From assembly GCA_014382295.1 (NCBI GenBank), contig JACNJZ010000093.1, forward strand, positions 570-64,569: a stretch of DNA of 64,000 nt, given 5' to 3'. The translations under genes and the position numbers were made by a program. Position 1 is the stretch's first letter. Each line of letters starts with the position of its first letter. This document shows positions 851 through 43,662 of the stretch, piece after piece. The stretch is from Candidatus Desulfobia pelagia. GTDB taxonomy: Bacteria > Desulfobacterota > Desulfobulbia > Desulfobulbales > SURF-16. The notes under the pieces were generated by a model. The model did not search any database, had not been told where the DNA came from, and was given only the letters and a program-made list of their open reading frames with translations.

Positions 851-851
851 G

Positions 852-5084: not shown

Positions 5085-5092
5085 TTTTGACC

Positions 5093-6253: not shown

Positions 6254-6265
6254 TCTGGTCTCTCT

Positions 6266-8161: not shown

Positions 8162-8423
8162 CTCATTCTCCAGTTTCAGCGTGTTTGAGTGTCTGAAGCA
8201 CAGCTTTTGCAGTAGATTTATGTCTAAGTCCGGCAGGCTCCTAGATATCACTGTTATGGCTGCACTCGTAAAAACAACTTGTCGATATGGAAAAAAAATA
8301 TGCTTAACGAACGGTTATATCATAAAGTGGTTATGTCGGCAAGTGAGATGTAACTACTTAATATTGTGATGAAATTAGCCCATGCTACAGCGAGATTGTG
8401 GGTCGAGGTTGACTCTTCGCGGG

Positions 8424-20710: not shown

Positions 20711-22675
20711 TTATGCCGAAGGTGATGAGGCTTGCCTGGCTTTTTTTGCCTCATACATCAGGGTGTCAGCCCTGGACATGAATTGCAGTATTTCACAGGG
20801 CTCATTGTCGGGTTGGCAGGAGGTGACCCCTATGCTGATAGATAATATGTAGGGTCTGCCAGAAGTATCGTTGAAGGCCTGAATTTCCTGTTCCAGGCGT
20901 TTGACTATCGCTGTTTCATCGTCAGATCCGGTAAGGAGAACTGCAAACTCGTCACCTCCTATACGGGAAATAATATCGGATTCACGGCAGAATCGTTTCA
21001 GCACCATTGCCCCATCCTGGAGTGCGGTATCTCCTGTCTGATGTCCAAAGTCGTCGTTGATTCCTTTCATGTTGTCGAGGTCGGCATACAGGAGATGGAG
21101 TTCTTTTTTATTTCTGTTGGCAATATGAAGCTGCTGCTGGGCAAGGGTTATAAAACCCCGGCGATTGTAAAGTCCTGTCAGTTCATCGGTGATTGAGAGT
21201 TTTTTCAGGTTCTCTTTGCTCTCGGTCAGTTCATGTTCAATTTTTTTCAGATAACTGATATCAGTAGAAACAAGAACAACTTCCCTGTTGTCTTGGGTCC
21301 CTGATGGTATTGGTGTTGCAGAAATTAAAAGATGTCTCTTTTCTCCGCTGCTATCCTGGAAAACCATTTCCCCCTGGCTTACGCCACTTTTTATCATTGT
21401 TCTGATGTACTGAAGATTTTCTTCCGGGAAGATGTCGGCGAGGCTGATGATTCTTTCGTCGTGGATCGCAGCGGAAAAGAGATGTATTGCCGACCTGTTT
21501 ATTGTGGTGAGTTCTTCATCGCTATTCACAACCAGGACGTTTTCACTCATTGTTGCAATAATATTGTCCAGATAATTGCGGGAAACCGTTGATTGGGCAA
21601 TGGCATACATCATTTTTTGAAAAGATCCGACCAGTTGGGATATTTCATCTTCTGATGTGGTGTCTATATCAAGAGTATTTCCTTTCTGCCCACTGGCTAT
21701 TTCCCTGGAATAGTGGATGAGGCTCATTATCGGCCTGGTCATCCGGTGGGCTATGAAATATGAAAAAATTCCGGTCAGGAAGAGAATGAAGGCAAGGGTA
21801 ATAAGGATGGTGTTGCGTATTTTGCTGAGTTTGGCATGGATGGGTTCATACGGTATAACGGCTTGAATATTCAGGTCTATTCCCGGAACTCGGGTTGAAG
21901 CGACCAGGGAGTCAGTGTCATAAATAAGCCTTCGCTTTACATCAGCATCATTAATTGTCGCGTCTATAGAAAGAGGGAAGGCGTCAGGTGGCTTCCTGTA
22001 TTCAATTTTTATATTACCCCGGGGCGTTTCTGATGGGAAAATGGCGATAGCATTTTTTTTGCTGTCGGAGATGATGAGATAACTGTCCGGATCAAGATTT
22101 TCAGATTGAATCTTCTTGCCAAGAAGGGAATAGGGCACGGAGGCCGAGATGATTCCGGCAAATTTGTTGCCAAAATAATGGGACTTGGCCAGAGCCATTC
22201 GAATGGTTGGTATTTTTAGGTCGGGATCAGTTCCTGAGGCAAAAATAATAACTTCGGCCGGATTGGCAATAAGGCGGTTTATGAGATCTGGGCTGTGGCT
22301 TCTTTTGTTCTGGTCGTCGGAAACACCATTTACAATCTTGAACTCTTCTTCACCTTTTGTATTAATAACAGCAAGTTGGGGAAATGTTTTCTGAAAACGG
22401 GTGAAATGTTCCTGCAGGGCAAGATCACGGTAATTGTTTAGATAATCCATGACAATTCTGTCGTCAGAAATGTGGCGCAGGTCTGTTGTCAGATCATCCA
22501 GTGTATCCTGAATAATTTTTGCGGAATGACGAGAACTGTGCTTGAGATTGTCAGTCTCCAGAGTCAGGAGATACCGGGAAAGGGAACTGTTGCTGATACT
22601 TCCGAGTACCAGGCTGACAAAGAGCACTGCTCCTAAGTGGGAAAAAAGGAGTTTTGTTTTAAGAGATTTAAACAT
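20711..22675 (-). CDS. Membrane sensor diguanylate cyclase (periplasmic Cache-like domain + HAMP + PAS + GGDEF)
   Basis: 654 aa. Two TM helices flank a periplasmic region of about 270 aa, and the C-terminal GGDEF domain carries RIGGDEFAVLL. Confidence 0.85.
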   Translation of the reverse strand: MFKSLKTKLLFSHLGAVLFVSLVLGSISNSSLSRYLLTLETDNLKHSSRHSAKIIQDTLDDLTTDLRHISDDRIVMDYLNNYRDLALQEHFTRFQKTFPQLAVINTKGEEEFKIVNGVSDDQNKRSHSPDLINRLIANPAEVIIFASGTDPDLKIPTIRMALAKSHYFGNKFAGIISASVPYSLLGKKIQSENLDPDSYLIISDSKKNAIAIFPSETPRGNIKIEYRKPPDAFPLSIDATINDADVKRRLIYDTDSLVASTRVPGIDLNIQAVIPYEPIHAKLSKIRNTILITLAFILFLTGIFSYFIAHRMTRPIMSLIHYSREIASGQKGNTLDIDTTSEDEISQLVGSFQKMMYAIAQSTVSRNYLDNIIATMSENVLVVNSDEELTTINRSAIHLFSAAIHDERIISLADIFPEENLQYIRTMIKSGVSQGEMVFQDSSGEKRHLLISATPIPSGTQDNREVVLVSTDISYLKKIEHELTESKENLKKLSITDELTGLYNRRGFITLAQQQLHIANRNKKELHLLYADLDNMKGINDDFGHQTGDTALQDGAMVLKRFCRESDIISRIGGDEFAVLLTGSDDETAIVKRLEQEIQAFNDTSGRPYILSISIGVTSCQPDNEPCEILQFMSRADTLMYEAKKARQASSPSA

Positions 22676-23668: not shown

Positions 23669-25342
23669 TTATTGGTCGAGGGAGGGAGAGAAATGGGCGG
23701 ATCTGTTTTTACCGCTGCCTTTTGCTCTGTACATGGCAGTGTCAGCATATCTCATCAGGGTCTGTTCATCTGTGGCATCATCCGGACAGAATGTGACGCC
23801 GATACTTGCTGTGATATGGACTTCATTGTCCCTGCCTACAATAAAAGGGCGGGCAAGGGACTGGAGGAGCTGCCTGATAACAGGCTCGGCATCGGACTGC
23901 TGGGTTATGTTGGTGAGGATAACGGTGAATTCATCTCCTCCAAGCCGGGCAATGGTATCTGTTTGCCGCAGACAGTAGTTGAGGCGCTGGGCAACTTCAA
24001 CCAGAAGATCGTCACCTGCCTGATGACCCAGCGAGTCATTGACGTTTTTAAAGTTGTCAAGGTCAATAAACATCAGGCAGAGGAGTTTGCCGGTACGGGT
24101 GCTCTGGAAGATAGCCTGGGAAAGACGTTCCATGAACAGGGCACGATTGGGAAGACCCGTTAATACGTCAAAATTGGCCAGTTTCCAGATTTGTTTTTCT
24201 GATTCTTTTCGTTCGGTAATATCCCTGGCTGTTGAGTTGACGGCTACAATGCTGTTGTTTTCATCATCATAGTGGTGATTCATGGTCCATAGCATGTCAT
24301 GGGTCTCGCCAATGGCATTGAGTATACGGTTCTCCAGGGTGATCCGTTCTCTTTTACCCTGAACAATGTCATTGAATAGTTCTTCAGTGCTCTGACGGTC
24401 CTCGGGATGAATGAAATCAAAAAGAGAGCGGCCCAGGCATTTTTTCGGTTCAAGGCCAAAGAAGGGGTGGGCCATGTGATTGACAAAGGTGAATTTACCC
24501 CTGGTGTCTACCTGGCAGACAAGGTTGTCTGTGCCCTCAATAAACTGACGATACTGGGCCTCATTCTCTCGCAGTGTTTTTTCTGCAAGCCAGCGTCTGG
24601 ATATATCTTTTATTATGCCGACAGCATGCCATTCACTGTCTATTCGCACGGAAGACAGGGAGAGCTCAATAGGGAACTCTTTTCCCTTTTTGTTCAAGGC
24701 AAAGAGTTCAGTTGTCTTGTCTATAACCGGGCCGGTGCCTGTCAGTGAAAAAGTGTGGAAATGTTCGCTGTAGGCCTTCATATATGTTTCAGGGACAAGG
24801 CGTTTATGGATGTCTTTCCCCAGTATTTCCTGTTCCGTATAGCCAAAGATTCTCTCGGCGGCTTTGTTCCAGAAAGTGGCTTCCCCACTGCTGTTGACCA
24901 TGATGATCGCATCATTTGCAGTTTGGGTGATGGCCCTCAGTTTTGCTTCGTTTTCCTTTATTCTGGCAATGAGATCTTTTTTTTCAAATTCACGCTCCAG
25001 CCGGATAAGAATATCTTCCGTGGAGCAGGGCTTGTTGAGAAAGTCATCAGCTCCGCTGCGCAGCGCCGATATGGCAGAATTTACGTTGGCAAAACCGGTT
25101 AGAATGATAACAACGGTTTCGGGAGCCTCTTCCTTGACTTTTTTAAGGACGTCGATTCCATCCATGCCTGCCATCATCAGATCGGTAAGCACAGCATCAT
25201 GGTGATCGACTTTGAACTTTTTCAGCCCTTCCTTGCCGTTTTCGGCAAGAGAGACTGTAAAACCGACGGCGCTCAGGTCGGTTTTCAGGCTGTGGCGAAT
25301 AAGTTCTTCGTCGTCAATGATGAGGATCTTTTTGTTGCTCAT
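23669..25342 (-). CDS. Response regulator diguanylate cyclase (REC + 2 PAS + GGDEF)
   Basis: 557 aa. MSNKKILIIDDEELI, phospho-acceptor context AVLTDLMMAGMDG, and RLGGDEFTVIL. Its start codon overlaps the ettA stop (ATGA). Confidence 0.9.
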   Translation of the reverse strand: MSNKKILIIDDEELIRHSLKTDLSAVGFTVSLAENGKEGLKKFKVDHHDAVLTDLMMAGMDGIDVLKKVKEEAPETVVIILTGFANVNSAISALRSGADDFLNKPCSTEDILIRLEREFEKKDLIARIKENEAKLRAITQTANDAIIMVNSSGEATFWNKAAERIFGYTEQEILGKDIHKRLVPETYMKAYSEHFHTFSLTGTGPVIDKTTELFALNKKGKEFPIELSLSSVRIDSEWHAVGIIKDISRRWLAEKTLRENEAQYRQFIEGTDNLVCQVDTRGKFTFVNHMAHPFFGLEPKKCLGRSLFDFIHPEDRQSTEELFNDIVQGKRERITLENRILNAIGETHDMLWTMNHHYDDENNSIVAVNSTARDITERKESEKQIWKLANFDVLTGLPNRALFMERLSQAIFQSTRTGKLLCLMFIDLDNFKNVNDSLGHQAGDDLLVEVAQRLNYCLRQTDTIARLGGDEFTVILTNITQQSDAEPVIRQLLQSLARPFIVGRDNEVHITASIGVTFCPDDATDEQTLMRYADTAMYRAKGSGKNRSAHFSPSLDQ

Positions 25343-27036: not shown

Positions 27037-27087
27037 AAAAGTTTTAAGTTGAAAGTCTTAAGTTTTAAGTTCATGGATGTTACTTAT
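27037..27087. repeat. AAGTTTTAAGTT family, full copy
   Basis: AAAAGTTTTAAGTTGAAAGTCTTAAGTTTTAAGTTCATGGATGTTACTTATG is a close match to 4895-4954. It spans the cyclase stop codon and ends 13 nt upstream of the ettA ATG. Confidence 0.6.
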
Positions 27088-28789
27088 GCAGCTCAGACCA
27101 GGATACGGTTCGATTCCGGCCTGATTCTTTGGCAGAATAGAGGGCCTGGTCGGCTCTGTCAATAAGTTCTGCTTTATTATCAGCATCAACGGGATAGGAT
27201 GCAAGGCCAAAAGACATGGTTATTGTAATTTTTTTTCCTTTTGAACTGAAGCTTAATTCCTCTATGGTAGTACGAACCCTCTCAGCCTGTATGCGGCCGC
27301 CTTCCTCGTCGGAAGCTTCAAGGATCAGGGCAAATTCTTCTCCTCCGTACCGGGCTGCCAGATCAACTTGGCGAATGGAAAGTTTGAGTATCTCGGCCAC
27401 TTTTTTCAGGACCTTGTCTCCAAAGGGGTGACCGTAAGAGTCATTTATCTTTTTGAAGTGGTCTATATCGCATAAAATGAGGCAGAGGGAAGATGACTGG
27501 CGACGGGACCGGATTATCATGTTGTCAAGGCCGAGCTGGAAAGTACGGTGGTTGTTAAGTCCCGTAAGACCGTCGGTAAGGGCCATCTGGTATATTTTTT
27601 CATGGGCCTGGGCAAGTTCGATTTTTGCGGCAATCTGCCCGGCGATAAGTTCCATGATATGGCGCTGGTCTCTGCTGAATATGCCTGTTTTCTGTGAGGC
27701 TATGGTGAGTGCCCCTATTGCCTTGTCTCCCTGTTGGCTCAAGGGGACAATGAGCAGAGATTTAAAGCCGGGTATAAGTTTGTTTCTGGAAAATACAGGT
27801 GCCGGATCAGGGTAGGTTTCGGTTGGCGGCATCCAGTGATTGCAGTGAATTGCCTGTCCCACCAGCCCGTCATTGTGCAGGTATTTGCATCCTTCCAGCT
27901 CTTCAGCCTGGTAGCCATCGGCCCTGACTATAGTATGTTCAGTATCTTGGAGGAGGCTGATAGCAACAAAATCGGCATCAACAAGTTCTTTTACACTGTC
28001 AATGGCAATATCAAAGGTCTCTTTGAGCTCCAGAACACTGTTGAGCCTCTTGATTCCTTTATACAGCCGGCTGACGACGTTTGTGTATCGGGCAGCCTGC
28101 AGGAGTTGATTGCCGATGTATATCTCACGGCTTATTTTGCCTGCGGCAAGTCTTATAAATTCCTGTTCATCTTCTGTCCACTCTTTATCTGAAGAGCGGT
28201 CAATTGATAGAATCCAGAAAGGGGTGTTGCTTGTTTTTGTTTTGGTGTGGTCAGGGATCCTGGTGGCCAGGAGGCTGCCAATGCCTTTGTTGGAGGTATA
28301 GTAGGGGATATTGGCAACCTGTTGAGAGACAGGACACACCTTGACATCTTTGTGCCCCTGGAACAGCACACTGAAAATGCCGATTCCCCGGGAAGCGCAA
28401 TCGTCAAGAATGTCTTTTTTTTCTGTGGAAATGGTGTGCAGGTATACCTTTTTCACAGCGGGATCTGCTTTAAGCAGGGCTGCCGAGGTAAGACTCAGGG
28501 CCTGGCAGATTATCTGCAGCAGGAGGGTACAGGACGAATCTATGTCTTCCTGGAAGGAATTTTTGTTTGATGAATAGGTGTCTATATCAGAAAGGATAGA
28601 ATCAGCTAATGGTTCCCGGATGGTTTTTTGTGTTGTAACGGGCTTGCTTTTCGGGAGCTTTTCTGTCCGGGTGGAAAGAGATCTGTGGCTGACTCTTTTT
28701 TTTGTAAAAGATCGTATAAGAAACCAGGATATGCCGGCCACGAGGGTAACAATTATAATACTCAGAAATGTCAGGTTTACTGATGTCAT
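27080..28789 (-). CDS. Membrane-anchored GAF-domain diguanylate cyclase
   Basis: 569 aa. N-terminal TM, two GAF-like regions, and a GGDEF domain with RYGGEEFALIL. Confidence 0.85.
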   Translation of the reverse strand: MTSVNLTFLSIIIVTLVAGISWFLIRSFTKKRVSHRSLSTRTEKLPKSKPVTTQKTIREPLADSILSDIDTYSSNKNSFQEDIDSSCTLLLQIICQALSLTSAALLKADPAVKKVYLHTISTEKKDILDDCASRGIGIFSVLFQGHKDVKVCPVSQQVANIPYYTSNKGIGSLLATRIPDHTKTKTSNTPFWILSIDRSSDKEWTEDEQEFIRLAAGKISREIYIGNQLLQAARYTNVVSRLYKGIKRLNSVLELKETFDIAIDSVKELVDADFVAISLLQDTEHTIVRADGYQAEELEGCKYLHNDGLVGQAIHCNHWMPPTETYPDPAPVFSRNKLIPGFKSLLIVPLSQQGDKAIGALTIASQKTGIFSRDQRHIMELIAGQIAAKIELAQAHEKIYQMALTDGLTGLNNHRTFQLGLDNMIIRSRRQSSSLCLILCDIDHFKKINDSYGHPFGDKVLKKVAEILKLSIRQVDLAARYGGEEFALILEASDEEGGRIQAERVRTTIEELSFSSKGKKITITMSFGLASYPVDADNKAELIDRADQALYSAKESGRNRTVSWSELHK

Positions 28790-28898: not shown

Positions 28899-28982
28899 GA
28901 TAGGAAATGGTTTTTTGTGGTCTGGGGAGGCATCTGCCCGGGAGCGTTTCTCCAGAGATGAAAATGACTAAGGAGGTATTTG

Positions 28983-29318
28983 ATGAATACAAAAGAGCTG
29001 AAAAAAATGCTGGCCAGTGTGGGTATTGCTGGCTTGCTTACAGGGTTGCCGCTCACCAGTGGAACTGCCATAGGCGGCAGTGGCTGAGGAGCTAAAGATG
29101 ACAGCGCCGTGAGCGCTGAAAAAGCAGAAAAACACACCGGCGGCAGTGGTTGAGGCGCCAAGAAAGAAGGTGCCGTGAGCACCGATGAAGAAGAGCACGA
29201 AGAAGAAAAAGAAGCCGGCGGTAGTGGCTGAGGCGCTAAAAAAGAAGGTGCCGTGAGCACCGACGACAAAGATAAAGAGGAAGAGCCTGGCTCAAGCGGC
29301 TGAGGCGGAAACAAGTAA
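28983..29318 (+). CDS. Candidate multi-core selenocysteine RiPP precursor (SbtA-like), 111 codons with four in-frame UGA (Sec) codons
   Basis: AAGGAGG at 28970-28976, ATG at 28983 and TAA at 29316-29318. In-frame TGAs at 29085, 29151, 29229 and 29301 each sit in a G-(G/S)-S-G-[TGA]-G-(A/G) context. Each is followed at +15 nt by a hairpin. The N-terminus is hydrophobic and leader-like. It is on the same strand as a radical SAM/SPASM gene, 51 nt upstream of it. Confidence 0.6.
29103..29117 (+). promoter_or_regulatory. SECIS-like hairpin 1
   Basis: AGCGC-CGTGA-GCGCT starts 15 nt after TGA 29085-29087. The 5-nt loop has G at position 2. Confidence 0.55.
29169..29183 (+). promoter_or_regulatory. 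SECIS-like hairpin 2
   Basis: GGTGC-CGTGA-GCACC starts 15 nt after TGA 29151-29153. The stem differs from hairpin 1 by two compensatory base-pair changes. Confidence 0.55.
29247..29261 (+). promoter_or_regulatory. SECIS-like hairpin 3
   Basis: GGTGC-CGTGA-GCACC starts 15 nt after TGA 29229-29231. Confidence 0.55.
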
Positions 29319-29335
29319 CAGTGCAGTTTGCACTG
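29319..29335 (+). promoter_or_regulatory. SECIS-like hairpin 4 (outside the coding frame; could also act as an attenuator)
   Basis: CAGTGC-AGTTT-GCACTG starts 15 nt after TGA 29301-29303 and immediately after the TAA stop. The sequence is unrelated to hairpins 1-3, but the offset is the same and the loop also contains GU. Confidence 0.5.
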
Positions 29336-29369
29336 AATATTTTACCAGTCCCGGGTAATTGTTAGTATC

Positions 29370-30968
29370 ATGACTTCACACTGGCCCTGTCAACCGGAAG
29401 AAATTTTTGCAGCGACTCATTGCTATATCGATCCCGGCTGCTGGGCCAGAATTTTTTCATCCGCTGAAGACCTTCCCTCTCCGGAGCAGTTTCCGGAAAT
29501 TCTCAGAAGACACTGTGCACAAGTAAACCTTCCTTCATTTCTGCCGGATCTCTCCCGGTTGGAGTTACTCCTCTTTCAGGCATCGCAGAGCACAGAGAAG
29601 ATTCCTGACAGCGTTGAAAAACTCTGTGTTAATCCCTCGTTGCATCTGCTTCGGCTTTCCTGGTCAAATCTCCTGAGGATTGTAAAGGAGCGCCCTGGCA
29701 ACCCGGAAAAGTTTCTCAGGCAGGAGCCTGAATTTATCGTTATCTGGCGTGATAAGGTAAAAAACGTTATCCGGAAAAAAACAGCGTCAGACACAGATAT
29801 CCTTGCTTTGAAAGTTATACTCGAAGAACTGTCAGTCGAGGATGTGGCCGCTGAAGGCGGAGTCGCTGTTGGCGTTATTGACCGTGCGGTTGGCCGGGCA
29901 GTGAGGCAGGGCATATTGCTTCGACCTTCCTCATTGCTACAAAGGGATGCGGATTTCCCCAGGGGTGAAAATATTGATGAGCGTTTTTTCTCATCATCTG
30001 TTTTTACGCTGCAGTGGCATATTACCCAGGCCTGTGATCTTCATTGTCGTCACTGTTATGACCGGAGCAGCAGGACAGCCCTTTCCCTTGAGAAAGGGTT
30101 GGCTCTTCTCGATGATTTCCGGTCATTCTGTCTGGAAAGAAATGTCCGGGGGCAGATTTCCTTTACCGGAGGAAACCCCCTCCTGCATCCTCATTTCTTA
30201 GAATTTTACCAGGCGGCGGCAGATCGCAATCTCATGACGGCGATTCTGGGAAATCCCTGTTCGCGAGAAAAATTAGAGGAAATCTGTGCCATACAGCATC
30301 CTGTTTTTTATCAGGTGAGCTTGGAGGGACTTGCTCCCCACAATGATTATATCAGGGGAGAGGGCCATTTTGAGCGAATCATCTCTTTCCTGGAAGAGCT
30401 CAAGAAGCTTAAAATATACTCCATGGTGATGCTGACCCTGACCCGTGCCAATATGGATCAGGTCTTTGCATTGGCCGACTATCTCCGCGACAAGGTCGAT
30501 CTTTTTACTTATAATCGGCTGGCCATGGTGGGAGAGGGCGCACAGCTTCTTTCTGTCCAGCAGGATGAATATAAGGTTTTTCTGAAAGAATATCTCAAGG
30601 AAGCTTCAGAAAATCCTGTGATCAGTTTGAAAGATAACCTTTTGAACCTGACCCGTTTTGAACAGGGAAAGGCGTTATTCGGAGGATGTGCCGGACATGG
30701 ATGCGGCGCGGCTTTTAATTTTATTGCCGCACTCCCCGATGGTGAAGTACATGCCTGCCGTAAACTTCCTTCCCAGATCGGCAATTTTTTTGAGCATTCA
30801 ATCGCCGCAATATATGACGGCGAGGAGGCGAGGAAATACCGGCATGGCGCCTCATCCTGTCGATCCTGTTCAATCCGCCCTGTCTGTGGAGGATGCCCGG
30901 CAGTCGTCTATGGTTTTGGCCTGGACGTATTCACCGACCGGGATCCATATTGTTACCTGAAGAGTTGA
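29370..30968 (+). CDS. sbtM: Radical SAM/SPASM peptide maturase, selenobiotic (SbtM-like) family candidate, with an N-terminal extension of about 200 aa
   Basis: 532 aa. CDLHCRHC (CX3CX2C) at 30033-30056, FTGGNPLL, and a C-terminal auxiliary-cluster motif CRSCSIRPVCGGC at 30858-30896 plus CAGHGCGAAF...HACRKL. It is immediately downstream of the UGA-containing peptide gene. The radical SAM/SPASM call is firm. The SbtM family assignment rests on context. Confidence 0.8.
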   Translation: MTSHWPCQPEEIFAATHCYIDPGCWARIFSSAEDLPSPEQFPEILRRHCAQVNLPSFLPDLSRLELLLFQASQSTEKIPDSVEKLCVNPSLHLLRLSWSNLLRIVKERPGNPEKFLRQEPEFIVIWRDKVKNVIRKKTASDTDILALKVILEELSVEDVAAEGGVAVGVIDRAVGRAVRQGILLRPSSLLQRDADFPRGENIDERFFSSSVFTLQWHITQACDLHCRHCYDRSSRTALSLEKGLALLDDFRSFCLERNVRGQISFTGGNPLLHPHFLEFYQAAADRNLMTAILGNPCSREKLEEICAIQHPVFYQVSLEGLAPHNDYIRGEGHFERIISFLEELKKLKIYSMVMLTLTRANMDQVFALADYLRDKVDLFTYNRLAMVGEGAQLLSVQQDEYKVFLKEYLKEASENPVISLKDNLLNLTRFEQGKALFGGCAGHGCGAAFNFIAALPDGEVHACRKLPSQIGNFFEHSIAAIYDGEEARKYRHGASSCRSCSIRPVCGGCPAVVYGFGLDVFTDRDPYCYLKS

Positions 30969-34278: not shown

Positions 34279-35097
34279 CTAGATCAGTTCACTGCTTCGT
34301 GCCGGAATCCAGCACTGGCGACCATCCTGAAGTTCAATGTGCAGCCATGATCCACGTTTTTCCAGGAGATGAAATTCTGTTCCGCTATGGAGCGGGGCAA
34401 TAAAGCTCGACTGGTATGAACGGCTATCCCCTTTTCTGGCAATGACTTCCCTGTCTGTGATAACTCCGGCCGCCTCTTCCACTCCATAACGGGAAAGGAA
34501 GAGCGATGAGGCAAAAAGAAATGCAATGGCCGCAAAAGGCGCAAGGGTCCAGGCTGAAACTCTCCATGGGGAAAGAAAGATCATCCCGGCAGCAATCCAG
34601 AAGGAAATATAGCTGCCAATAAAGATGGCTGCCCTGATATCCTGGGCAAGATCATAGTGCCAGAAAAACAGAGTTCGCAGCAGGGTCTCCTCTTGTTGTG
34701 GTGCAATGGCATCCTGACGCTTTCCAAGCACATAGTCCAGGTTGTGCCGGAGGTTCGGGTCTCCGGGAATGTGTTTTTCAGCCCTTCGATAGTTGACAAT
34801 GGCCCGGCCAATATCCCCCATACGAAAGTAGGTGTTGCCGATATTGTAGTAGATGTTTCCGCTGGGGACGTCTCTGCTTATTTTCTGGTAACGAAGCAGG
34901 GCTTTTTCGTAGAGTTTTTCGGCCTCCTCCGGGTTGTCATTTTCATTTGCCTGGTGAAACAGGGCTGCGGCCTCCTGCATCAGATCCTGGATCTCCGGAG
35001 TAATGATCGGATGTTCTGCGTGTGCAACAAGGGAGTGGTTGAAAAGGCAGAGCAGAAACAGGAAAAGAAAAGACCTGGCAAGTGTCAACGCTGTCAT
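34279..35097 (-). CDS. BatE-like TPR / SH3b membrane protein
   Basis: 272 aa. Signal peptide, TPR region (NIYYNIGNTYFRMGDIGRAIVNY), TM helices and a C-terminal SH3-like WLHIELQDGRQCWIP. It is the last gene of the Bat operon, and its start overlaps the batD stop. Confidence 0.65.
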   Translation of the reverse strand: MTALTLARSFLFLFLLCLFNHSLVAHAEHPIITPEIQDLMQEAAALFHQANENDNPEEAEKLYEKALLRYQKISRDVPSGNIYYNIGNTYFRMGDIGRAIVNYRRAEKHIPGDPNLRHNLDYVLGKRQDAIAPQQEETLLRTLFFWHYDLAQDIRAAIFIGSYISFWIAAGMIFLSPWRVSAWTLAPFAAIAFLFASSLFLSRYGVEEAAGVITDREVIARKGDSRSYQSSFIAPLHSGTEFHLLEKRGSWLHIELQDGRQCWIPARSSELI

Positions 35098-36935
35098 ATC
35101 TGTCCCTCCAGTCTTGATGCAAGATCGAAAAGACGCTTGGTTACATGGGCTGAATTGGCCGGAGTATCTACCCCTCCTGCGTAACGCATTGTTTCACACT
35201 CTTCCATAATCTTTTTTAATTCATCCTGAAGTGAAGGGTCTGTACAGCCATTATCTAATGCCGTTATAACGTCGGAGAATGTTATTGTCCCGGCAGTTTT
35301 TCCTGTTTTGGCAGCAAGGTAGTTCTGAAGAGCCCTGTTGATCTGTTCTCCTGAAAGAGAAGCTGAGCTCAGTTCTTTTTTTAATAGCGGATAGGCATTG
35401 CGGATTTTTCGTTCAGCGCCATTGCCCTTTCGTCTGCGAACCATAAAGGAAGCACCATAGACTAGAAAAAAGAGACCAGGGGGCAGTATGAGTGAGAGCC
35501 ATAGCATCACGGGAGACTGCTGCTTGATGTAGAGCGCATTACCCTCTATTTCTTCATAATTGTGATTAATTCCCTCAATCACTGCCTGGATTTTTTTCTT
35601 TCCTGTTGCCGCATCAAGGCCTTCGGCATCCAATGCGGTGACGATACGGGTGGTGCTGACCTGCAATGGTATGGGGGGTGTGCGGGCCGTTGTGTACCTT
35701 TTTTCCTCTATATCGAAGTAGGTCAGGGCAATGGGAGGGATCTCGGTGACCCGGCTGTTTTTTACCCGTATTGTCTGGGTGTAGGTTTTCCCCCCATCTG
35801 CAATTTCTCCGGCGGCCATTTCTTCAGGAATTTTAAAAGATTCAGGGTGGAGAAAACGTGACAGGTCAGGCAGTTGAATATGTTTGAGTGAAGATCCTTC
35901 CACGGTAACAGTTAGGGTAATGGGGTCACCTATATTTACCTGGGTGGGAGATGCTTTTGCCTGTATGGCATATGTACCGACCAGACCCGAAAAGAAAGGC
36001 GGCTTGTTCTCGGCGGGCAGGGGGAGGACGGTCAATGTCGGTTGGTTTGACGGGGTTACAAATGTCTGGTAGACCGCCCGTCTTCCGGAACTGAAAAAAT
36101 CTTCAAAGACGTCGTTTCCCATACCGCCGAATGGGCGGTTTGAACGGGACTGCCTGTACCCCGTGAGAGCCTGGCAGGACACTGTGGTTTGCGGGAGTGT
36201 GAAGGACCCTTCCTGCAATGGAACAAGGTGGTGCTGGAAAGTAACGGTGAGAAACTCTTCACCATCCAGTTTTTCTTTTCCCTTTGTTGCAGGTACCGTG
36301 TGTGTACCCACCGGAACCTCCAGTGTGTCTTGATTGTCTGCGGCAAGGGGCGTTGCGTCAAATCCGGGTTCTGAAAGCACCGGCAGGTTGAACTCGAAGT
36401 TTTTGACATTCTTGCCGACATACCAGGTTGTGGTCAATATGACTGGTTCACCAACATAGCATGTCTCCTTGGAGAGTGACATCCGAACCTTGAATTCAGC
36501 GGTCTCCTGGGGTTTCCTGGCATGAATTGTAACAGGGCGGGTCGAGTAATTTCTGCCGTCAACAGTGACATGAATTGCAGGAATGATCAATTCCCCTGAT
36601 TTCTTTGGAGTCAGACTGTAATTGAAAATATAGCCGTGGTGGGTAATCTGCTGCCATGAACCATTTGTATTGCTTACCATGGTGCTGCTGTTGCTCTGGC
36701 CTCCCATGGGCCGCACTGTGAAATCGGTAAGTTGGCTGGTGTCAGGTTCTGCAGGGGAGTCGGCTCCTTCTACCCTGATTTGCATGGTGAAGGACTCACC
36801 GACAAAGACCTCCTGCCTCTCTACTGCTGTTTCCACCTGTATGTCAGCCGCATTAACGGAATGAGGCAGGAGGCAGAGAGAAAAGAGTACCGTTATGAGA
36901 GTAACAATGTTTGCTGTTTGAAAAATGACGCGCAT
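35094..36935 (-). CDS. BatD-like oxygen-tolerance protein
   Basis: 613 aa. Signal peptide, a large beta-rich extracytoplasmic region and one late TM (VMLWLSLILPPGLFFLVYG). Operon position is conserved after BatC. Confidence 0.7.
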   Translation of the reverse strand: MRVIFQTANIVTLITVLFSLCLLPHSVNAADIQVETAVERQEVFVGESFTMQIRVEGADSPAEPDTSQLTDFTVRPMGGQSNSSTMVSNTNGSWQQITHHGYIFNYSLTPKKSGELIIPAIHVTVDGRNYSTRPVTIHARKPQETAEFKVRMSLSKETCYVGEPVILTTTWYVGKNVKNFEFNLPVLSEPGFDATPLAADNQDTLEVPVGTHTVPATKGKEKLDGEEFLTVTFQHHLVPLQEGSFTLPQTTVSCQALTGYRQSRSNRPFGGMGNDVFEDFFSSGRRAVYQTFVTPSNQPTLTVLPLPAENKPPFFSGLVGTYAIQAKASPTQVNIGDPITLTVTVEGSSLKHIQLPDLSRFLHPESFKIPEEMAAGEIADGGKTYTQTIRVKNSRVTEIPPIALTYFDIEEKRYTTARTPPIPLQVSTTRIVTALDAEGLDAATGKKKIQAVIEGINHNYEEIEGNALYIKQQSPVMLWLSLILPPGLFFLVYGASFMVRRRKGNGAERKIRNAYPLLKKELSSASLSGEQINRALQNYLAAKTGKTAGTITFSDVITALDNGCTDPSLQDELKKIMEECETMRYAGGVDTPANSAHVTKRLFDLASRLEGQI

Positions 36936-36944
36936 ATCCTATCC

Positions 36945-38060
36945 TTACCAGTCCTTATCTACCAGGAGGCGATCCTGGCCACGGCGATTTTTTCGCATTT
37001 CCTGTACTTTTTTTTCAGTATTGAGAAGTTCTTCAAGAGCCTGTTCAGAGGAATCCATGGTCATGTTCTCAGTATCGTCAGCAGATTCCTCACTGCTTTC
37101 TTCCTGGGCCATATCCATCTGCTGTTCATCCTGGTTTTGATCTTTATTTTCTTGTTGCCCCTGTTGCGGGGAAGCCTGTTGCTGCTCCTGTTCGTTGTGT
37201 TCTTTCAGGGAATCCCTGGCCTGCTGCAGGAGGTCCGCAGCATTATCCTGTTGCTTTTGTGCCTGTTCGATATCGTTTTGTTTGAGACTTTCTTCAGCTT
37301 TCTTTTGTTCTTTAATTGCCTGCTGCATCTGATCCATTGCCTGGGAGTCCTGTCTATCCCCGGCTCCCTGACTTGTATTCATCTGATCGGCAAGCTCTTC
37401 AGTTTGACGGCGAAGTTGCTCTTGGCTGGCCGCATCCTCATCCTTATTTTCCGTCTCTCCCTGCAGGCTTTTCTCTTTGTTACTGTCAGCCATCTCCTGC
37501 TGTTTTTCCTGGAGGGATTCAAGTTGTTTCTGCATGTTCTGCTGTTGTTCGGCCGCCTGTTTCATCTGTTCCTGTTCAAGCCGTTGCTGTTCTTCAAGCT
37601 TTTTTATTGTACGCCGGCATATCTCAAGGTTTCGACCAGCTTCTTTTATAGAGCTGTCATGTCCCAGAGCCAGCTGGAAAGCTCTGCTGCTCTCCTTAAG
37701 AAGGTCAAGTTTGGCAGAAAGGTGTTCAGCCTGTTCTGCTTTCTGGAACAGGGTATTGCCGATATTGTACCTGGAGGCGGCACTGGAAGCCGGGTCCTCA
37801 ATAGCCGCCGCCGCTTTCTCATACGCAGAAAGAGCGTCGTCATATCTGCCTAGTCTGTACAGGCCGTTACCCCTGTTAAAAAGGGCATGACGGGAAGACT
37901 CATCAGCCGCCGCTGCTTCATCATATTTTTGCAGCGCTTCTTCGTACTGTTCCTTGTCGTAGGCGGTATTTCCTGCATCGAGCAAGTCTCGAACAGAAGC
38001 GGCAAAGGTCAGAGAAGGGATACAGAGAATCAGTCCCGTAAAAAGAATGAGTAGTCGCAT
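36945..38060 (-). CDS. BatC-like TPR protein with long Gln/Glu-rich coiled-coil tail
   Basis: 371 aa. Signal peptide, TPR repeats (YEEALQKYDEAA, RYDDALSAYEKAA) and a low-complexity Q/E/K region of about 180 aa. Confidence 0.65.
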   Translation of the reverse strand: MRLLILFTGLILCIPSLTFAASVRDLLDAGNTAYDKEQYEEALQKYDEAAAADESSRHALFNRGNGLYRLGRYDDALSAYEKAAAAIEDPASSAASRYNIGNTLFQKAEQAEHLSAKLDLLKESSRAFQLALGHDSSIKEAGRNLEICRRTIKKLEEQQRLEQEQMKQAAEQQQNMQKQLESLQEKQQEMADSNKEKSLQGETENKDEDAASQEQLRRQTEELADQMNTSQGAGDRQDSQAMDQMQQAIKEQKKAEESLKQNDIEQAQKQQDNAADLLQQARDSLKEHNEQEQQQASPQQGQQENKDQNQDEQQMDMAQEESSEESADDTENMTMDSSEQALEELLNTEKKVQEMRKNRRGQDRLLVDKDW

Positions 38061-38063
38061 AAT

Positions 38064-39125
38064 TTAAGAAAGTACGTTTTTTCTTTCAGTATTTTTCTGT
38101 GGATTGCCCGGCCATTTTTTCCGTTCGCTGACCAGCCCTTCGACGATCAGCAGGATAATGGCCAGAGCCAGGAAGATCTGAAATTTGTCTTCATGCCGTT
38201 TTATAATTTCTGTTTCAAAGTCCTTTTTGTCGGCTGTGGCAATAAGATCACGGTATACCTCACCCAGATCTATGGAGCCGGTGGCAACGGGCAGGTATTT
38301 TCCTCCCGGGGTGGCCTTGGCCATCTGCCGGAGGGTTGAGGCGTCAAGCCTGCTCCAGACTTCCTCTCCCTGGTATTTAAGGAAGGATGTCTGTCCGGTG
38401 TGTTCGTTCACAGGGATGCGTTGCCCTTCGTTTTCGTTGCCAAGGCCGACAATGAGAAGCCTGATGCCTTCATCTCCTGCAGTTTCGGCTGCCTGGAGAG
38501 GGAAGCTTTCATGGTCTTCACCGTCGGTGATCAGTATAATGTCCCGAAACTGTTTTTGCTGGGAATCAAAAATTTTGTTGAGAACCGTTCTGATAGCATC
38601 TCCGAGCATGGTGCCGCCCCTGCTGACACTCGTGGTATCTGTTGCGTCCAAGGCCTGGAGAAAAAAGCCATAGTCAACGGTGAGGGGACATTTGACGGCG
38701 GCATCGCCGGCAAAAGCAACAAGAGCGACACGGTCTCCCTGTAATTGACTGATACAGTCGGCAATGGCAAGTTTGGCCCGTTCCAGCCTGTTGGGTTTGA
38801 GGTCATTGGCAAGCATACTCCGCGATACGTCGAGAATGAAGACAACATCCCGGCCTGAACGGCTGATCGTTGTTTCCTTGACATTCCAGGCAGGTCGTGA
38901 AAGTCCGATGATGATGCCTGTGATGGCTACACAGAAGAGCAGCATCTTTATGATACGGCCGGTAGGGGATGATGATACGGGTATCCTGGGGATAAGTTCC
39001 GGAGATAAGAAGGAAGCCAGCGCCTTTCTGCGTTTGCCAAGGTCATATATGAAGAGAAGGACGACAAAAGGAAGTACCCAGAGCAGAAGCAGGCTTTCAA
39101 TGTGATAAAAATAAAAATCACTCAT
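38064..39125 (-). CDS. VWA domain membrane protein (BatB-like)
   Basis: 353 aa. N-terminal TMs and a VWA MIDAS motif (VFILDVSRSM). Its start overlaps the batA stop (ATGA). Confidence 0.8.
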   Translation of the reverse strand: MSDFYFYHIESLLLLWVLPFVVLLFIYDLGKRRKALASFLSPELIPRIPVSSSPTGRIIKMLLFCVAITGIIIGLSRPAWNVKETTISRSGRDVVFILDVSRSMLANDLKPNRLERAKLAIADCISQLQGDRVALVAFAGDAAVKCPLTVDYGFFLQALDATDTTSVSRGGTMLGDAIRTVLNKIFDSQQKQFRDIILITDGEDHESFPLQAAETAGDEGIRLLIVGLGNENEGQRIPVNEHTGQTSFLKYQGEEVWSRLDASTLRQMAKATPGGKYLPVATGSIDLGEVYRDLIATADKKDFETEIIKRHEDKFQIFLALAIILLIVEGLVSERKKWPGNPQKNTERKNVLS

Positions 39126-40183
39126 GGGACTTTCCTGAACAGGGTTGAGCTTAGGAGGAATTCCAGCAGCAGGAGTGCCAGGGCCGCCTGTATAAAGGGA
39201 ACAAAAAATTCCCTGTAGTCTATAAATCGGATAGATTCAATTTCGCTTTTTTCCAGTTGATCAATTTCTCCATAGATTGCCCTCAGGCTGTCGGCATTGG
39301 ATGCCATTCGGAAAACACCGCCTGTTTCTTCGGCAAGCATTGCCAGTGTCTTCTGGTCAACCCCACGTCCCGCTCGCTGAATTCTGCTGAAAAATCCTCC
39401 CAGGCCGCCAGGGCCGTTTTCGGAGCCAATGCCGACAGTATAGATTTTTATCCCTCTTGATTTCGCCAGTTCCGCAGCATCTGAAGGTGTCAGGGTGCCC
39501 CTGTTGTGGGCGCCGTCGGTAAGAAGGATGATAATTTTACTCTTGATCTGGTAGTGGCGGTCCGAAGGGTTTTCCTGCTGCATTCTGGCGAGGGCTTCTT
39601 CCACTTTCTCCAGTCTGGCAACAGCCAGGCCAAGTCCGTCACCGATTGAAGTGCCGTCTTCATCTCTCCGGTCAACGAGGCTGATGTTTTGTACAAGATC
39701 GTCAACTGCTTCGTGGGCAAGGGTAAGAGGGCAGGCCGTTTCTGCAAAACGGGCAAAGCTGACTACGCCGATAAGATCATTTGGCCGCCCTGTGAGATCA
39801 TCATTGTTGCCGCTGATGAATTCTGAGAATATTTTTTTTACAACTTCAAGGCGGTTGGTTTCAGTGCCGTCAAAATTCATTGTTTCTCCCATGCTGCTTG
39901 ACCGGTCAACAACTGCTTCGATGGCAATACCATGGCTGACATCCTGAATTTTTTCAAGACCCTGCTGAGGCCGTGCCAGGCCGACAGTGAGCAGTATAAG
40001 CGCCAGGACCCTGAGGGCAAGGGGGAGATAATGCAGCCTTTGCCGCAAGGATGTGCCGGTATGGGCAAACAGGGCAATGGATGAGTATCTGACAGTGCTC
40101 CGCCGGTTTCTGCGCAACTGCAGAGAGACAAAAGGGATAATGAGGATGAGGGCAAGGAAGGCCCAGGGGAACGCAAACCTCAT
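39122..40183 (-). CDS. VWA domain membrane protein (BatA-like)
   Basis: 353 aa. N-terminal TMs, VWA (AVVDRSSSM, LLTDGAHN) and a C-terminal TM. Confidence 0.8.
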   Translation of the reverse strand: MRFAFPWAFLALILIIPFVSLQLRRNRRSTVRYSSIALFAHTGTSLRQRLHYLPLALRVLALILLTVGLARPQQGLEKIQDVSHGIAIEAVVDRSSSMGETMNFDGTETNRLEVVKKIFSEFISGNNDDLTGRPNDLIGVVSFARFAETACPLTLAHEAVDDLVQNISLVDRRDEDGTSIGDGLGLAVARLEKVEEALARMQQENPSDRHYQIKSKIIILLTDGAHNRGTLTPSDAAELAKSRGIKIYTVGIGSENGPGGLGGFFSRIQRAGRGVDQKTLAMLAEETGGVFRMASNADSLRAIYGEIDQLEKSEIESIRFIDYREFFVPFIQAALALLLLEFLLSSTLFRKVP

Positions 40184-41193
40184 GGCGTCCCTCCATTCCC
40201 TTTGGTGTCATGCTCAGAGGTCTGTTCTATGAAGTCACGGCAGAGATCAAGTGATTGGGATGTTTCACCTTCAGTTGGTTGTGCCTCGGCAAATTTAATA
40301 AGGTCGCTTCTGGAGAGGAAGTGACGTAACCGGTCCTTTTGATCCTGGTTGAAAAGGTCGCTTGCCCGCAGATCCGCAAAGAATTCCTCGGTGGTCTGTT
40401 CGGGGGCTTTAATGGTAAAGCGTGACTCGATATAATGTCGAAGTATAAGGCTCAGGCGGTTGAAGAATTCTTTATGGCGGCCTTTGGCAGGAAGATTTTC
40501 TCCGGCAAGTGCGTTAATGGCTGTGAAGGCTTCAATGTGACAGGGAATTGCCGGTATGTCTTTTTTGCTGGAAGAGCGTTTCCGGAACAACCAGAAAAGT
40601 CCTGCTGCAGTGATGAAAATAAGTAATCCTGCGGCGATATAAATCCATGTGGTGTCGCGGGCAAGAGCCACTGGCGGAATAATGTCTGCCAGGGCCGGTT
40701 CTTCCTCTGTCGAATCGAGAAACGAGGTGACAGGGATGACAATTTCAGAGGTTGTGGTGAGAAATGTTTTTTCAGGATTACTCCTGTCTGTAGCGGTAAT
40801 AGAAAGAACTGGGATTGAGTACTCTCCGGGGAGAAAGGGTTCGACCTCCCAGGTTTTTGAAATGAGCAGGCCCGTGTCCGTCAGCTCTTTTTTGGCATCA
40901 GAGCGCTCCATGATAGTAAAATCACCCAGAGCGGCCTGGAATTCCGGCAGGATAATGTCATATTTTTCAGGTGCATGGGCGGAGACAGTAACGGTCAGTG
41001 ATTCGGCAATCGTCATCTCCTTTCTGGAAATATGAATATCCACGACCAGGGGGTCTGTGGTGAAGCTCCGGGTATAACTGCTTTCTTCTACAGGTTGTGC
41101 CGCTACACATGATGTGCCCCAGGAAAAGAAGAGGGCACAGATGAAAAACAGCAGCCCTGTATGGGTGTATATCCTTTTTCGTATGATGATCAT
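40180..41193 (-). CDS. Membrane protein of the Bat operon (DUF4381-like C-terminal region)
   Basis: ORF 40180..41292. I prefer ATG at 41191-41193 (MIIIRKRIY...), which avoids overlapping the DUF58 gene. It has a signal/anchor, an extracytoplasmic domain, a central TM (WIYIAAGLLIFITAAGLFWLF) and a cytoplasmic tail. Confidence 0.55.
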   Translation of the reverse strand: MIIIRKRIYTHTGLLFFICALFFSWGTSCVAAQPVEESSYTRSFTTDPLVVDIHISRKEMTIAESLTVTVSAHAPEKYDIILPEFQAALGDFTIMERSDAKKELTDTGLLISKTWEVEPFLPGEYSIPVLSITATDRSNPEKTFLTTTSEIVIPVTSFLDSTEEEPALADIIPPVALARDTTWIYIAAGLLIFITAAGLFWLFRKRSSSKKDIPAIPCHIEAFTAINALAGENLPAKGRHKEFFNRLSLILRHYIESRFTIKAPEQTTEEFFADLRASDLFNQDQKDRLRHFLSRSDLIKFAEAQPTEGETSQSLDLCRDFIEQTSEHDTKGNGGTP

Positions 41194-41203
41194 AGTGTGC
41201 TGA

Positions 41204-42085
41204 CTAATACCGTAATCGTTTCTCTCTCGCCTTGAAGAAGAGGACAAGATCATGAACATAGTCATGGGTTGTCTGCAAAGGGATATGGTCAACTCCCATG
41301 GATGAAAACAATGCAGCCAGTGAGGCTTTATGTTTTGTTGCAGTCATGGCGAACTTCTCCCGAACTTTTCTGCTTCCCGTATCCACCAGTATTGTTTTTC
41401 CTGATTCTGCATCCTCAAGTTCGATAAGGCCAATGTTCGGCATGGATTCTTCTCTGGGGTCTGTTATGGAGACTGCGATCAGGTCATGGCGCCTGGAGAG
41501 AATAGACATGGATTTTTTGTAATTCGGTGCAATAAAATCTGAAATAACAAAGACAACGGCTCGTTTATGCATGATTTTTCCGAAATAATCGAGGGCTGCA
41601 TTGATATCAGTGCCGGTCCGTTCCGGTGAGAAGTGAAGTATTTCCCGGATAAGGCGGAGAACGTGGGTGGAGCCTTTTTTAGGGGGGATAAAGAGTTCCA
41701 CCGTGTCGGTGAAGACCAGCAGGCCGACCTTGTCATTGTTTTTGATGGCAGAAAAGGCAAGCAGGCTGCAGAGTTCGGCGGCTACCTCATTTTTCATGTG
41801 GTGCACACTGCCAAACATTCCGGATGCGGACAGGTCGACGAGAAAGAAGACCGTGAGCTCCCGTTCTTCAACGTATTGCTTGACATAGGGATGGCCGTTG
41901 CGTGCCGTTACGTTCCAGTCAATGGTCCGGATGTCGTCACCGGGCTGATATTCACGGACTTCATCGAATTCCATGCCCCGGCCTTTGAAAACACTCTGGT
42001 ATTCTCCAGAGAGGATGTCGTTTACGGCTTTACGGGTATGGATCTGGATGGCACGTATTTTTTTTGTCAGTTCGCTGCTGATCAT
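41204..42085 (-). CDS. DUF58 domain protein (MoxR-associated)
   Basis: 293 aa. GEYQSVFKGRGMEFDEVREYQPGDDIRTIDWNVTAR is the DUF58 signature. Its start overlaps the moxR stop. Confidence 0.85.
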   Translation of the reverse strand: MISSELTKKIRAIQIHTRKAVNDILSGEYQSVFKGRGMEFDEVREYQPGDDIRTIDWNVTARNGHPYVKQYVEERELTVFFLVDLSASGMFGSVHHMKNEVAAELCSLLAFSAIKNNDKVGLLVFTDTVELFIPPKKGSTHVLRLIREILHFSPERTGTDINAALDYFGKIMHKRAVVFVISDFIAPNYKKSMSILSRRHDLIAVSITDPREESMPNIGLIELEDAESGKTILVDTGSRKVREKFAMTATKHKASLAALFSSMGVDHIPLQTTHDYVHDLVLFFKAREKRLRY

Positions 42086-43068: not shown

Positions 43069-43218
43069 ATTTTCCCCTTGAAACGCCTTTTTTCTGTGTG
43101 AGCCTCTGTTCCCATAGGTTCGTAAGCTTTGTATTAGTAATAATTTGATGCGAAGTCGATATTTTATACTGAACAAAGAAAAAGTATTGTGATATAGTAT
43201 TGGAATAATGACACATAA

Positions 43219-43662
43219 ATGCCATACAGGTTCCAATTTTTCGAGGTCGATAATTTAATGAGTACAGGTGGTGACGCAAATAAATCATATGATTTGAGGG
43301 AAATGGAAGATATCTTTTCCTGCCTTGAAATTATTACCATGGCTCGTGGAATTCTTTACCCTGTTGATGCTGGTCTGGCTGCCCGGTTGGAAAAAGTAAG
43401 TGATGCTCTGAGTGCTTTCTCTCTGGTTGTCGATGAAATGCAATTTGCCTCTGGTCAGGCTGAAAGCGTCATGTCGCAGAAGTCAGCCCCAAGGGAACAA
43501 TTTTCTCTTGATGCCGGAAGAGGTGGGAAAGGTTTAGATCCGCTGGATCTCCTGTCTGATTTTCCACAATCAGGACGCAGCAGTAAAAAATCAGGTGCTA
43601 AAAATATGTCTGATGATGATGACGGTATTGTTGATATTCTTACCGGAGAGAAGATACGGTAG
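43219..43662 (+). CDS. Hypothetical protein
   Basis: 147-aa ORF divergent from the Bat operon. I recognise no motif. The C-terminal half is acidic and low complexity, and the start is uncertain. Confidence 0.3.
   Translation: MPYRFQFFEVDNLMSTGGDANKSYDLREMEDIFSCLEIITMARGILYPVDAGLAARLEKVSDALSAFSLVVDEMQFASGQAESVMSQKSAPREQFSLDAGRGGKGLDPLDLLSDFPQSGRSSKKSGAKNMSDDDDGIVDILTGEKIR

Follow-up and report, generated by a model that had tools for sequence, protein, structure and literature searches.

The SbtA/SbtM system, which consists of a precursor peptide and an adjoining radical S-adenosylmethionine (SAM) maturase, was reportedly given the name 'selenobiotic' by Haft and Basu in 2011. In this study we focus on one such pair, sbtA and sbtM, found in a stretch of 64,000 nucleotides from Candidatus Desulfobia pelagia (contig JACNJZ010000093.1); this whole stretch is called the window, and all positions are counted within it. 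The reading frame of sbtA contains four TGA codons, which in the light of the sequence comparisons below are best read as selenocysteine (Sec, U) inserted by local recoding. Indeed, the two genes probably form a cassette that makes a ribosomal peptide with four selenooxazoles, by the mechanism proposed in the last section.

The reaction of the maturase has a precedent. According to the passages on Lewis et al. (2021) in two sources, SbtM converts Gly-Cys or Gly-Sec of synthetic peptides in vitro into a thio- or seleno-oxazole (PMC9204691, PMC11002830). The same passages give as evidence a loss of 4 Da and an absorbance at 304 nm, red-shifted by 9 nm with Sec, and describe abstraction of a hydrogen atom from the beta-carbon, with two rounds of SAM-dependent oxidation being proposed. 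A preliminary description of our locus had held that the product chemistry of this family was not shown experimentally, a statement overtaken by this in vitro thio(seleno)oxazole formation of 2021. The SbtA peptide has been described as longer than first thought, with 'at least two SeCys' (PMC9204691), and a 2026 review lists the family with two Sec (PMC13188914), whereas the precursor of the window would contain four. The locus otherwise shares with the family the G-U-G core, a candidate selenocysteine insertion sequence (SECIS) right after each UGA and the adjoining radical SAM/SPASM maturase, and its Desulfobulbaceae-like lineage is typical.

Other systems resemble the pair in part. Bufferins and oxazolins ('captophorins') contain a 5-thiooxazole, of which the Sbt heterocycle would be the seleno analogue, and have repeated x-G-x-C-G-type sites, an N-terminus like a signal peptide of the general secretory pathway, minimal clusters devoid of protease or exporter, and an MNIO partner, NGO1945, which resembles the SbtM N-terminal domain by fold. 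Bufferins leave the cytoplasm by the general secretory pathway and, once in the periplasm, bind copper by means of their thiooxazoles (PMC11626156). The differences lie in the catalyst, an O2-dependent MNIO against an O2-independent radical SAM/SPASM enzyme, in the fusion of the partner-like domain to the enzyme in SbtM, and in the reactive residue, Sec in Sbt but Cys in bufferins; moreover, no MNIO or DoxX gene is found near sbtA-sbtM. By this comparison the pair is not a member of the bufferin/oxazolin systems, and the similarity appears to be one of working only.

Eukaryotic Selenoprotein P also holds several UGA-encoded Sec in one polypeptide, but there two SECIS in the 3' untranslated region (UTR) serve all UGAs, whereas in sbtA each UGA has its own candidate SECIS 17-18 nt downstream; Selenoprotein P and SbtA share neither sequence relationship nor function. 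For SelB to act in bacteria, the SECIS has to lie within the coding sequence, shortly downstream of the UGA. Finally, among solved structures, those of anSME and of the sactipeptide/ranthipeptide maturases CteB, SuiB and SkfB come closest to the catalytic part of SbtM. They have in common with SbtM the radical SAM barrel and a SPASM domain with auxiliary clusters, but catalyse thioether or formylglycine chemistry rather than heterocycle formation, and have a plain RiPP (ribosomally synthesised and post-translationally modified peptide) recognition element (RRE) in place of the DUF2063-like N-terminal recognition domain of SbtM.

The sbtA gene and its maturase gene

The main features of the locus are as follows.
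28970-28976, + strand: Shine-Dalgarno sequence AAGGAGG, 6 nt 5' of the ATG at 28983
28983-29318, + strand: sbtA precursor gene, 336 nt, 111 codons, from ATG 28983 to TAA 29316-29318
29370-30968, + strand: sbtM, radical SAM/SPASM maturase of 532 aa, TIGR04082
29370-29984, + strand: SbtM N-terminal domain, residues 1 to ~205, MNIO-partner-like fold (DUF2063-RRE)

The sbtA frame translates as MNTKELKKMLASVGIAGLLTGLPLTSGTAIGGSG-U-GAKDDSAVSAEKAEKHTGGSG-U-GAKKEGAVSTDEEEHEEEKEAGGSG-U-GAKKEGAVSTDDKDKEEEPGSSG-U-GGNK, contains no Cys and has no further stop. Its in-frame TGAs are located at 29085, 29151, 29229 and 29301, that is 66, 78 and 72 nt apart, within a common G-(G/S)-S-G-U-G context that forms four G-S-G-U-G core sites. 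The part that follows the leader, ~77-80 residues long, is acidic; from the first Sec onwards, its 77 residues include 20 Asp and Glu against 11 Lys and Arg. The sequence thus agrees with the preliminary description, which had listed the same start, Shine-Dalgarno sequence, stop, TGA positions and spacing with an identical translation, and had remarked on the common TGA context, the lack of Cys and of other stops, the hydrophobic N-terminus and the acidic spacers. A Shine-Dalgarno sequence, either AAGGAGG or GGAGG, stands at the equivalent position in nearly all homologous SbtA loci.

The pattern GGN-WSN-GGN-TGA-GGN-G has four occurrences in the window, where shuffled sequences predict 0.10, and none of 100 shuffles reaches four; three of the four matches are inside sbtA, whose fourth TGA (TCA-AGC-GGC-TGA) falls outside the pattern. 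Tandem Repeats Finder delimits a repeat at 29118-29284, with a unit of 78 nt, 2.2 copies and 80% matches. Four ENA metagenome assemblies, independent of one another, contain the same 336-nt sbtA including its four TGAs, so that the gene is not an assembly artefact. In these four assemblies the locus was left empty by the gene callers: sbtA is a real, unannotated small gene missed by standard gene callers.

For profile searches U was written as C in the peptide. Residues 1-25 of SbtA match NCBIfam TIGR04081 (SbtA family thio(seleno)oxazole RiPP natural product precursor), a model of the SbtA N-terminus only, with 39.6 bits for a cutoff of 30.5, and the leader scores 47.1 bits with our own leader hidden Markov model (HMM). 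The start of sbtM lies 51 nt 3' of the sbtA stop on the same strand, and its product matches TIGR04082 (thio(seleno)oxazole modification radical SAM maturase SbtM) with 718.6 bits for a cutoff of 350. SbtM contains the Pfam domains Radical_SAM (PF04055) and SPASM (PF13186); the cysteines of its CX3CX2C motif (C222, C226 and C229) and the SPASM cysteines between 440 and 509 are invariant in 23 homologues. Among species-representative genomes, the nearest SbtM (75% identity) belongs to a Candidatus Desulfobia metagenome-assembled genome (Desulfobulbaceae), in which the flanking genes are alike. By these profile matches, sbtA is a genuine SbtA precursor adjoining its maturase SbtM, and the pair is a member of the known SbtA/SbtM family. 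The hidden SbtA-family precursor beside a radical SAM maturase that had been proposed earlier is confirmed by the TIGR04081 score, and the two models named on that occasion, TIGR04081 and TIGR04082, do exist and are both matched over their cutoffs.

Our homologue set comprises 80 SbtM loci, searched in six frames, with TGA read through, by the HMM of the SbtA leader. An SbtA-type leader peptide was found beside sbtM in 71 of these 80 loci, which yielded 76 precursors.

Probable selenocysteine at the in-frame UGAs

Each of the four UGAs is followed by a hairpin.
29102-29118, + strand: SECIS-like hairpin 1, CAGCGC-CGUGA-GCGCUG, starting 17 nt past the U of UGA 29085
29169-29183, + strand: SECIS-like hairpin 2, GGUGC-CGUGA-GCACC, starting 18 nt past UGA 29151 and encoding G-A-V-S-T
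29247-29261, + strand: SECIS-like hairpin 3, GGUGC-CGUGA-GCACC, starting 18 nt past UGA 29229
29319-29335, + strand: SECIS-like hairpin 4, CAGUGCA-GUU-UGCACUG, starting 18 nt past UGA 29301, in the sbtA-sbtM spacer

A covariance model, R1, was trained on 125 UGA sites from loci other than the window and its closest relative. It matches site 1 at 29085-29129 (37.9 bits, E 3.3e-6), site 2 at 29151-29195 (40.5 bits, E 9.6e-7), site 3 at 29229-29273 (41.7 bits, E 5.4e-7) and site 4 at 29301-29346 (36.2 bits, E 7.4e-6). Over both strands of the 64-kb window the model finds exactly these four sbtA sites, the next best match having 11 bits.

Hairpins recur at the UGA sites of the family, in which the Gly-rich G-[U/C]-G/S core context is represented by 184 sites with U and 35 with C. 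At ~80% of the 184 UGAs, a hairpin whose stem has 5 bp or more begins 14-21 nt past the U, whereas in shuffles, and downstream of the Cys codons at the 35 equivalent sites, hairpins occur at scattered positions. With a stricter start (position 16-22), hairpins follow 61% of UGAs, 20% of Cys codons and 8% of shuffles. Counted from the codon start, the segment at 10-48 nt has a mean folding energy of -10.35 kcal/mol for UGA against -7.45 kcal/mol for Cys codons (P = 3e-7). SelB-binding elements in bacteria are expected to have small apical loops containing G and U, and the apical loops of the SbtA hairpins are AGGUG, AGGUA, CGUGA, GGUCA, GGU or GUU. In a MAFFT alignment of 150 UGA sites, a helix of seven pairs has 83% of its cells paired, against 20-51% with slid partners. 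Double changes are observed in all seven pairs, for instance GC 67 / AU 64, UA 107 / CG 30 and CG 58 / GC 27 / UA 20, and the covariation score of the alignment is reached by none of 500 shuffles. RNAfold also offered, at sites 2 and 3, an alternative pairing of GGCGCC with GGUGCC; it was set aside, as the comparative data favour the local hairpin. Part of the covariation ties the synonymous third position of a Thr codon to the first position of a Ser or Gly codon, where changes are non-synonymous, and the peptide motif 'S/G-A-V/G-S/G-T' therefore largely reflects an RNA constraint. Hairpin 4 stands just 3' of the TAA, free of coding constraint, and a hairpin past the stop with equal spacing is found at 36 of the 55 terminal UGA sites of homologues. 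Followed by AAUAUUUU, hairpin 4 may double as a partial terminator.

The frame itself behaves as coding beyond the UGAs. Substitutions past the first UGA fall mostly at the third codon position, then at the first and least at the second (e.g. 30, 18 and 8), and the tails after the last U are conserved among homologues as USGSK, UGGKK or UGGNK, followed by TAA or TAG. U and C exchange at matching positions in close relatives, as seen on comparing locus L005 with L006 and L007, and an NCBI-named SbtA (P0125) has three Cys and lacks the SAVS motif. The preliminary description had suggested examining the in-frame TGA/Cys position in homologous loci, and this position is conserved; its reading of four Sec also gains support from the SECIS-like hairpin after every TGA and from the leave-out model that retrieves the four sites and no other. 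TGA, in addition, is an ordinary stop in this DNA: the 42 long open reading frames (ORFs) of the window end with 23 TGA, 15 TAA and 4 TAG, the TGA-ended ones including sbtM and both genes named in that description. As TGA is the commonest ordinary stop in the window, the read-through in sbtA must be local, as had been anticipated, and reassignment of the genetic code (TGA as Trp or Gly) is ruled out. A search for further TGA-interrupted selenoprotein frames in the window returned candidates that are all frame shadows or gene junctions; the one at 442 (TGA 442-440), for example, is by translation the junction between the methylmalonyl-CoA epimerase gene and a following carboxyltransferase gene.

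Several observations do not favour Sec insertion. The SbtA hairpins have no match to any SECIS or other family in Rfam, either at the gathering threshold or at E up to 5, and a tRNA scan and NCBIfam/Pfam scans of 40 ORFs revealed no selA, selB, selD or tRNA-Sec in the 64-kb window, the tRNA scan finding no tRNA at all. The fourth hairpin also fits a terminator pattern. Read-through of UGA in E. coli is inefficient at each site, and four serial UGAs would give a low yield of the full-length peptide together with a series of truncated products, 34, 56 and 82 aa long. One could go further and take the first TGA for a real stop, so that only a 34-aa leader peptide is made and the repeats and hairpins are untranslated RNA acting as attenuators or terminators; the rank of TGA among stops, the fit of the hairpins, on one of the two strands, to a simple terminator pattern, and the lack of Sec machinery in the window would all fit. 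Such a stop is nonetheless highly improbable, given that the frame stays open through the TGAs, free of TAA or TAG, in dozens of diverged relatives, that its substitution pattern is coding-like, that the tails past the last U are conserved, and that relatives carry TGC or TGT at matching positions, then usually with no hairpin.

Sec modules, leader and the SbtM N-terminal domain

The number of U per precursor, counted over the 76 precursors from 71 loci, is zero in 7, one in 4, two in 23, three in 35, four in 6 and five in 1. The preliminary description had considered the tandem multi-Sec form unusual, a view that does not hold, three Sec being the mode. With six precursors having four Sec and one having five, the four Sec of the window are in the upper tail of the distribution and not new for the family. 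Sec and Cys sites together number up to seven per precursor, and the module number ranges from 1 to 7 among relatives. The nearest relatives of the window SbtA (L001 and P0121-P0124) have three Sec, and several more distant three-Sec relatives keep an 'EGAV' remnant where the window gene has a complete third module; modules 2 and 3 of the window share 80% DNA identity. By these comparisons, SbtA modules have evidently been gained and lost through tandem duplication. Individual relatives show further arrangements: the peptide at L009:6384 has five Sec modules and so exceeds the window SbtA, that at L074:3328 combines four Sec and three Cys modules in one chain, and that at L021:3475 has four near-identical modules. 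In P0121-P0124, which are public metagenome calls on short contigs, TGA was translated as Trp, giving 'GSGWG'; mistranslated selenopeptides are thus present in protein databases.

Residues 1-31 of SbtA resemble a signal peptide, with an n-region containing K4, K7 and K8, an h-region at about residues 9-24, and T-A-I-G followed by G-S-G-U. From this pattern the leader looks like a signal peptide of the general secretory type. A lipobox-like L-x-[GAS]-C motif closes the leader in 39 of 75 homologues (e.g. L004:3568, L012:3565, L016:1823 and L028:1429), and since about half of the leaders end in this way, many SbtA members are suggested to be lipoproteins. Across the 80 loci, no conserved neighbour of sbtM was found other than its own SbtA partner; the system thus has no dedicated protease, exporter or immunity gene. 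No MNIO (PF05114, DUF692) was detected among the genes ~5 kb on either side, nor among the other long ORFs scanned.

AlphaFold (AF2) models of SbtM are confident, the predicted local distance difference test score (pLDDT) being 86.5 over the whole protein and 87.9 in the model of residues 1-208. In Foldseek searches the catalytic core retrieves CteB, SuiB, SkfB and anSME. The N-terminal domain has no Pfam match at gathering level, and its model matches NGO1945 (3dee; E 1.4e-6, template modelling (TM) score 0.57-0.59 over 199 columns) and TglI (8hi7_A and 8hci_A; E 4e-4), which are its sole significant matches in the PDB, the next having E 0.14. Weak sequence matches point to the same families, NGO1945_C (PF22106) in 3 of 19 members (E 0.006) and DUF2063 (PF09836) in 3 of 19 (E 0.12). 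The MNIOs that form the 5-thiooxazoles of bufferin and oxazolin precursors have as their 'PME-type 1' partners DUF2063-RRE proteins of the NGO1945 type, which correlate specifically with precursors carrying a signal peptide of the general secretory pathway (PMC12452194). No separate gene for such a partner was found beside sbtA-sbtM. Through the modelled fold of its N-terminal domain, SbtM connects two routes to thiooxazoles, that of radical SAM enzymes and that of MNIOs; a statement of this domain link was not found in the searchable literature, which did not include Lewis et al. (2021).

Proposed mechanism, alternatives and surroundings

Sequence, structure conservation and the Sec/Cys exchange suggest that sbtA is translated through its four UGAs as Sec, the hairpin 17-18 nt past each of them recruiting SelB and Sec-tRNA(Sec). 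SbtM would then bind the precursor, probably via its DUF2063/RRE-like N-terminal domain acting on the conserved leader, as the fold similarity indicates. At each Gly-Sec, the radical SAM/SPASM core would carry out the four-electron oxidation to a 5-selenooxazole that is described in vitro for another SbtM, and the four selenooxazoles would be installed in the cytoplasm, before export. The whole acidic peptide of ~80 residues would most likely leave in one piece by the general secretory pathway, because no protease or exporter accompanies sbtA-sbtM; about half of the homologues, with a lipobox instead, would be lipid-anchored. More speculatively, the product could serve in the anaerobe's periplasm as a ligand of Cu(I) or other soft metals, as bufferins and oxazolins suggest by analogy. 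Sbt may then be an anaerobic, selenium-using counterpart of the bufferin/oxazolin copper-binding peptides, with a like precursor layout, a like but fused recognition module, a like heterocycle, and a soft-metal-binding periplasmic or lipid-anchored product containing up to five selenooxazoles. We put this forward as a tentative idea, with less confidence than the cassette itself.

Part of the evidence pulls the other way. The native mature product and the function of Sbt systems are described as unknown (PMC9204691), and the metal-binding role is argued purely by analogy. The signal-peptide call is a heuristic one based on the n/h/c-region pattern, and the subfamily of the window SbtA has no lipobox Cys, its first Sec being at position 35. 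The match of the N-terminal domain is moderate, with a TM score of about 0.58, a root mean square deviation of 4.7 Å and 16% identity.

Two other fates of the modified peptide deserve consideration. It could be a true multi-core precursor, cut between modules after modification into four small selenooxazole peptides in the manner of cyanobactins. This was already implied by the preliminary description, and the repeated modules with their acidic spacers and the variation of module number from 1 to 7 among relatives would suit it. Separately released products nevertheless find no support, since neither a protease nor a dedicated exporter is conserved beside sbtM in the 80 loci; the spacers vary widely in length and sequence and show no conserved cleavage motif, and the conserved 'GAVST' motif, which might pass for a recognition site, owes much of its conservation to the SECIS hairpin. 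Among known thiooxazole peptides, those with repeated motifs, for example the oxazolins and the seven-site fontiphorin, also stay one chain, and we regard a multi-core precursor as unlikely. Slightly less probable still is a secreted antimicrobial in place of a periplasmic metal binder. TIGR04081 is indeed listed as 'Selenobacteriocin' (PMC13188914), and many radical SAM RiPPs are antibiotics, but this label is apparently a name only, no activity data having been found. Moreover, the pair is not accompanied by any conserved gene for immunity, an ABC exporter or a protease, the peptide itself is long and acidic and seems to be unstructured, and the lipobox of about half of the homologues argues for retention by the cell. 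We thus prefer the single exported chain with four selenooxazoles.

Upstream of sbtA, one further RNA element could be delimited.
28921-28956, + strand: 5'-UTR hairpin with arms 28921-28931 and 28946-28956 and a CCCGGG loop motif at 28937-28942, 46 nt 5' of the ATG

A CCYGGG-centred hairpin 46-54 nt upstream of the sbtA start is found in 26 of 68 loci, with differing stem sequences, in Sec-type and Cys-type loci alike (e.g. L005:3062-3103, L038:3507-3548 and L063:3443-3484). It has no Rfam match, and in a covariation analysis with MAFFT and RNAalifold the variable loops threw the hairpins out of register, so that no usable structure emerged. A regulatory or stabilising RNA element is possible. 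A candidate sigma-54 promoter, TGGGGAGGCATCTGC at 28923-28937, was rejected, the motif being present in 2 of 69 homologous upstream regions. Downstream of the pair, the four metagenome contigs L081-L084 all end at one point (~31155), 187 nt past the sbtM stop, which hints at a strain-variable junction or a repeat directly after the cassette.

The wider window contains several recognisable systems. A cyclic di-GMP-I riboswitch (RF01051) lies on the - strand at 13748-13844 (42.1 bits for a gathering threshold of 35), upstream of a 128-aa ORF at 13111-13497. At least three GGDEF proteins are encoded (20711-22675, 23669-25342 and 27080-28789), and the gene of the last one is divergent from sbtA and syntenic in 15 loci. 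An aerotolerance-type operon at 35094-43236 (- strand) encodes BatD, two VWA proteins, one of them with a BatA N-terminal domain, a DUF58 protein and a MoxR AAA+ ATPase, and also holds an unassigned 370-aa ORF at 40180-41292; it is adjoined by a tetratricopeptide repeat protein gene at 34279-35097 with a weak BatC-like match. Finally, a propionate/methylmalonyl-CoA cluster at 440-8251 (- strand) comprises genes for the epimerase, the large and B12-binding subunits of methylmalonyl-CoA mutase, MeaB, the alpha and beta subunits of succinyl-CoA ligase, and a propionate/acetate-CoA ligase.

Our work rescues a gene that had been missed by gene callers and adds one further member to a known family. 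At the family level, SbtA precursors typically contain three and up to five Sec, with one SECIS each in less than 350 nt, which exceeds the two Sec of current tables. A short gene with four SECIS elements also offers a compact natural system in which serial Sec insertion by bacteria could be tested, and if the proposed reading is true, SbtA would be among the most Sec-rich bacterial selenoproteins, with one SECIS per UGA. It would also mean that a recognition module has been exchanged between two unrelated families of oxidative enzymes. Furthermore, the fold of the SbtM N-terminal domain, together with the signal-peptide and lipobox leaders, leads to the testable idea that the Sbt product could be an exported selenooxazole metallophore of anaerobes.

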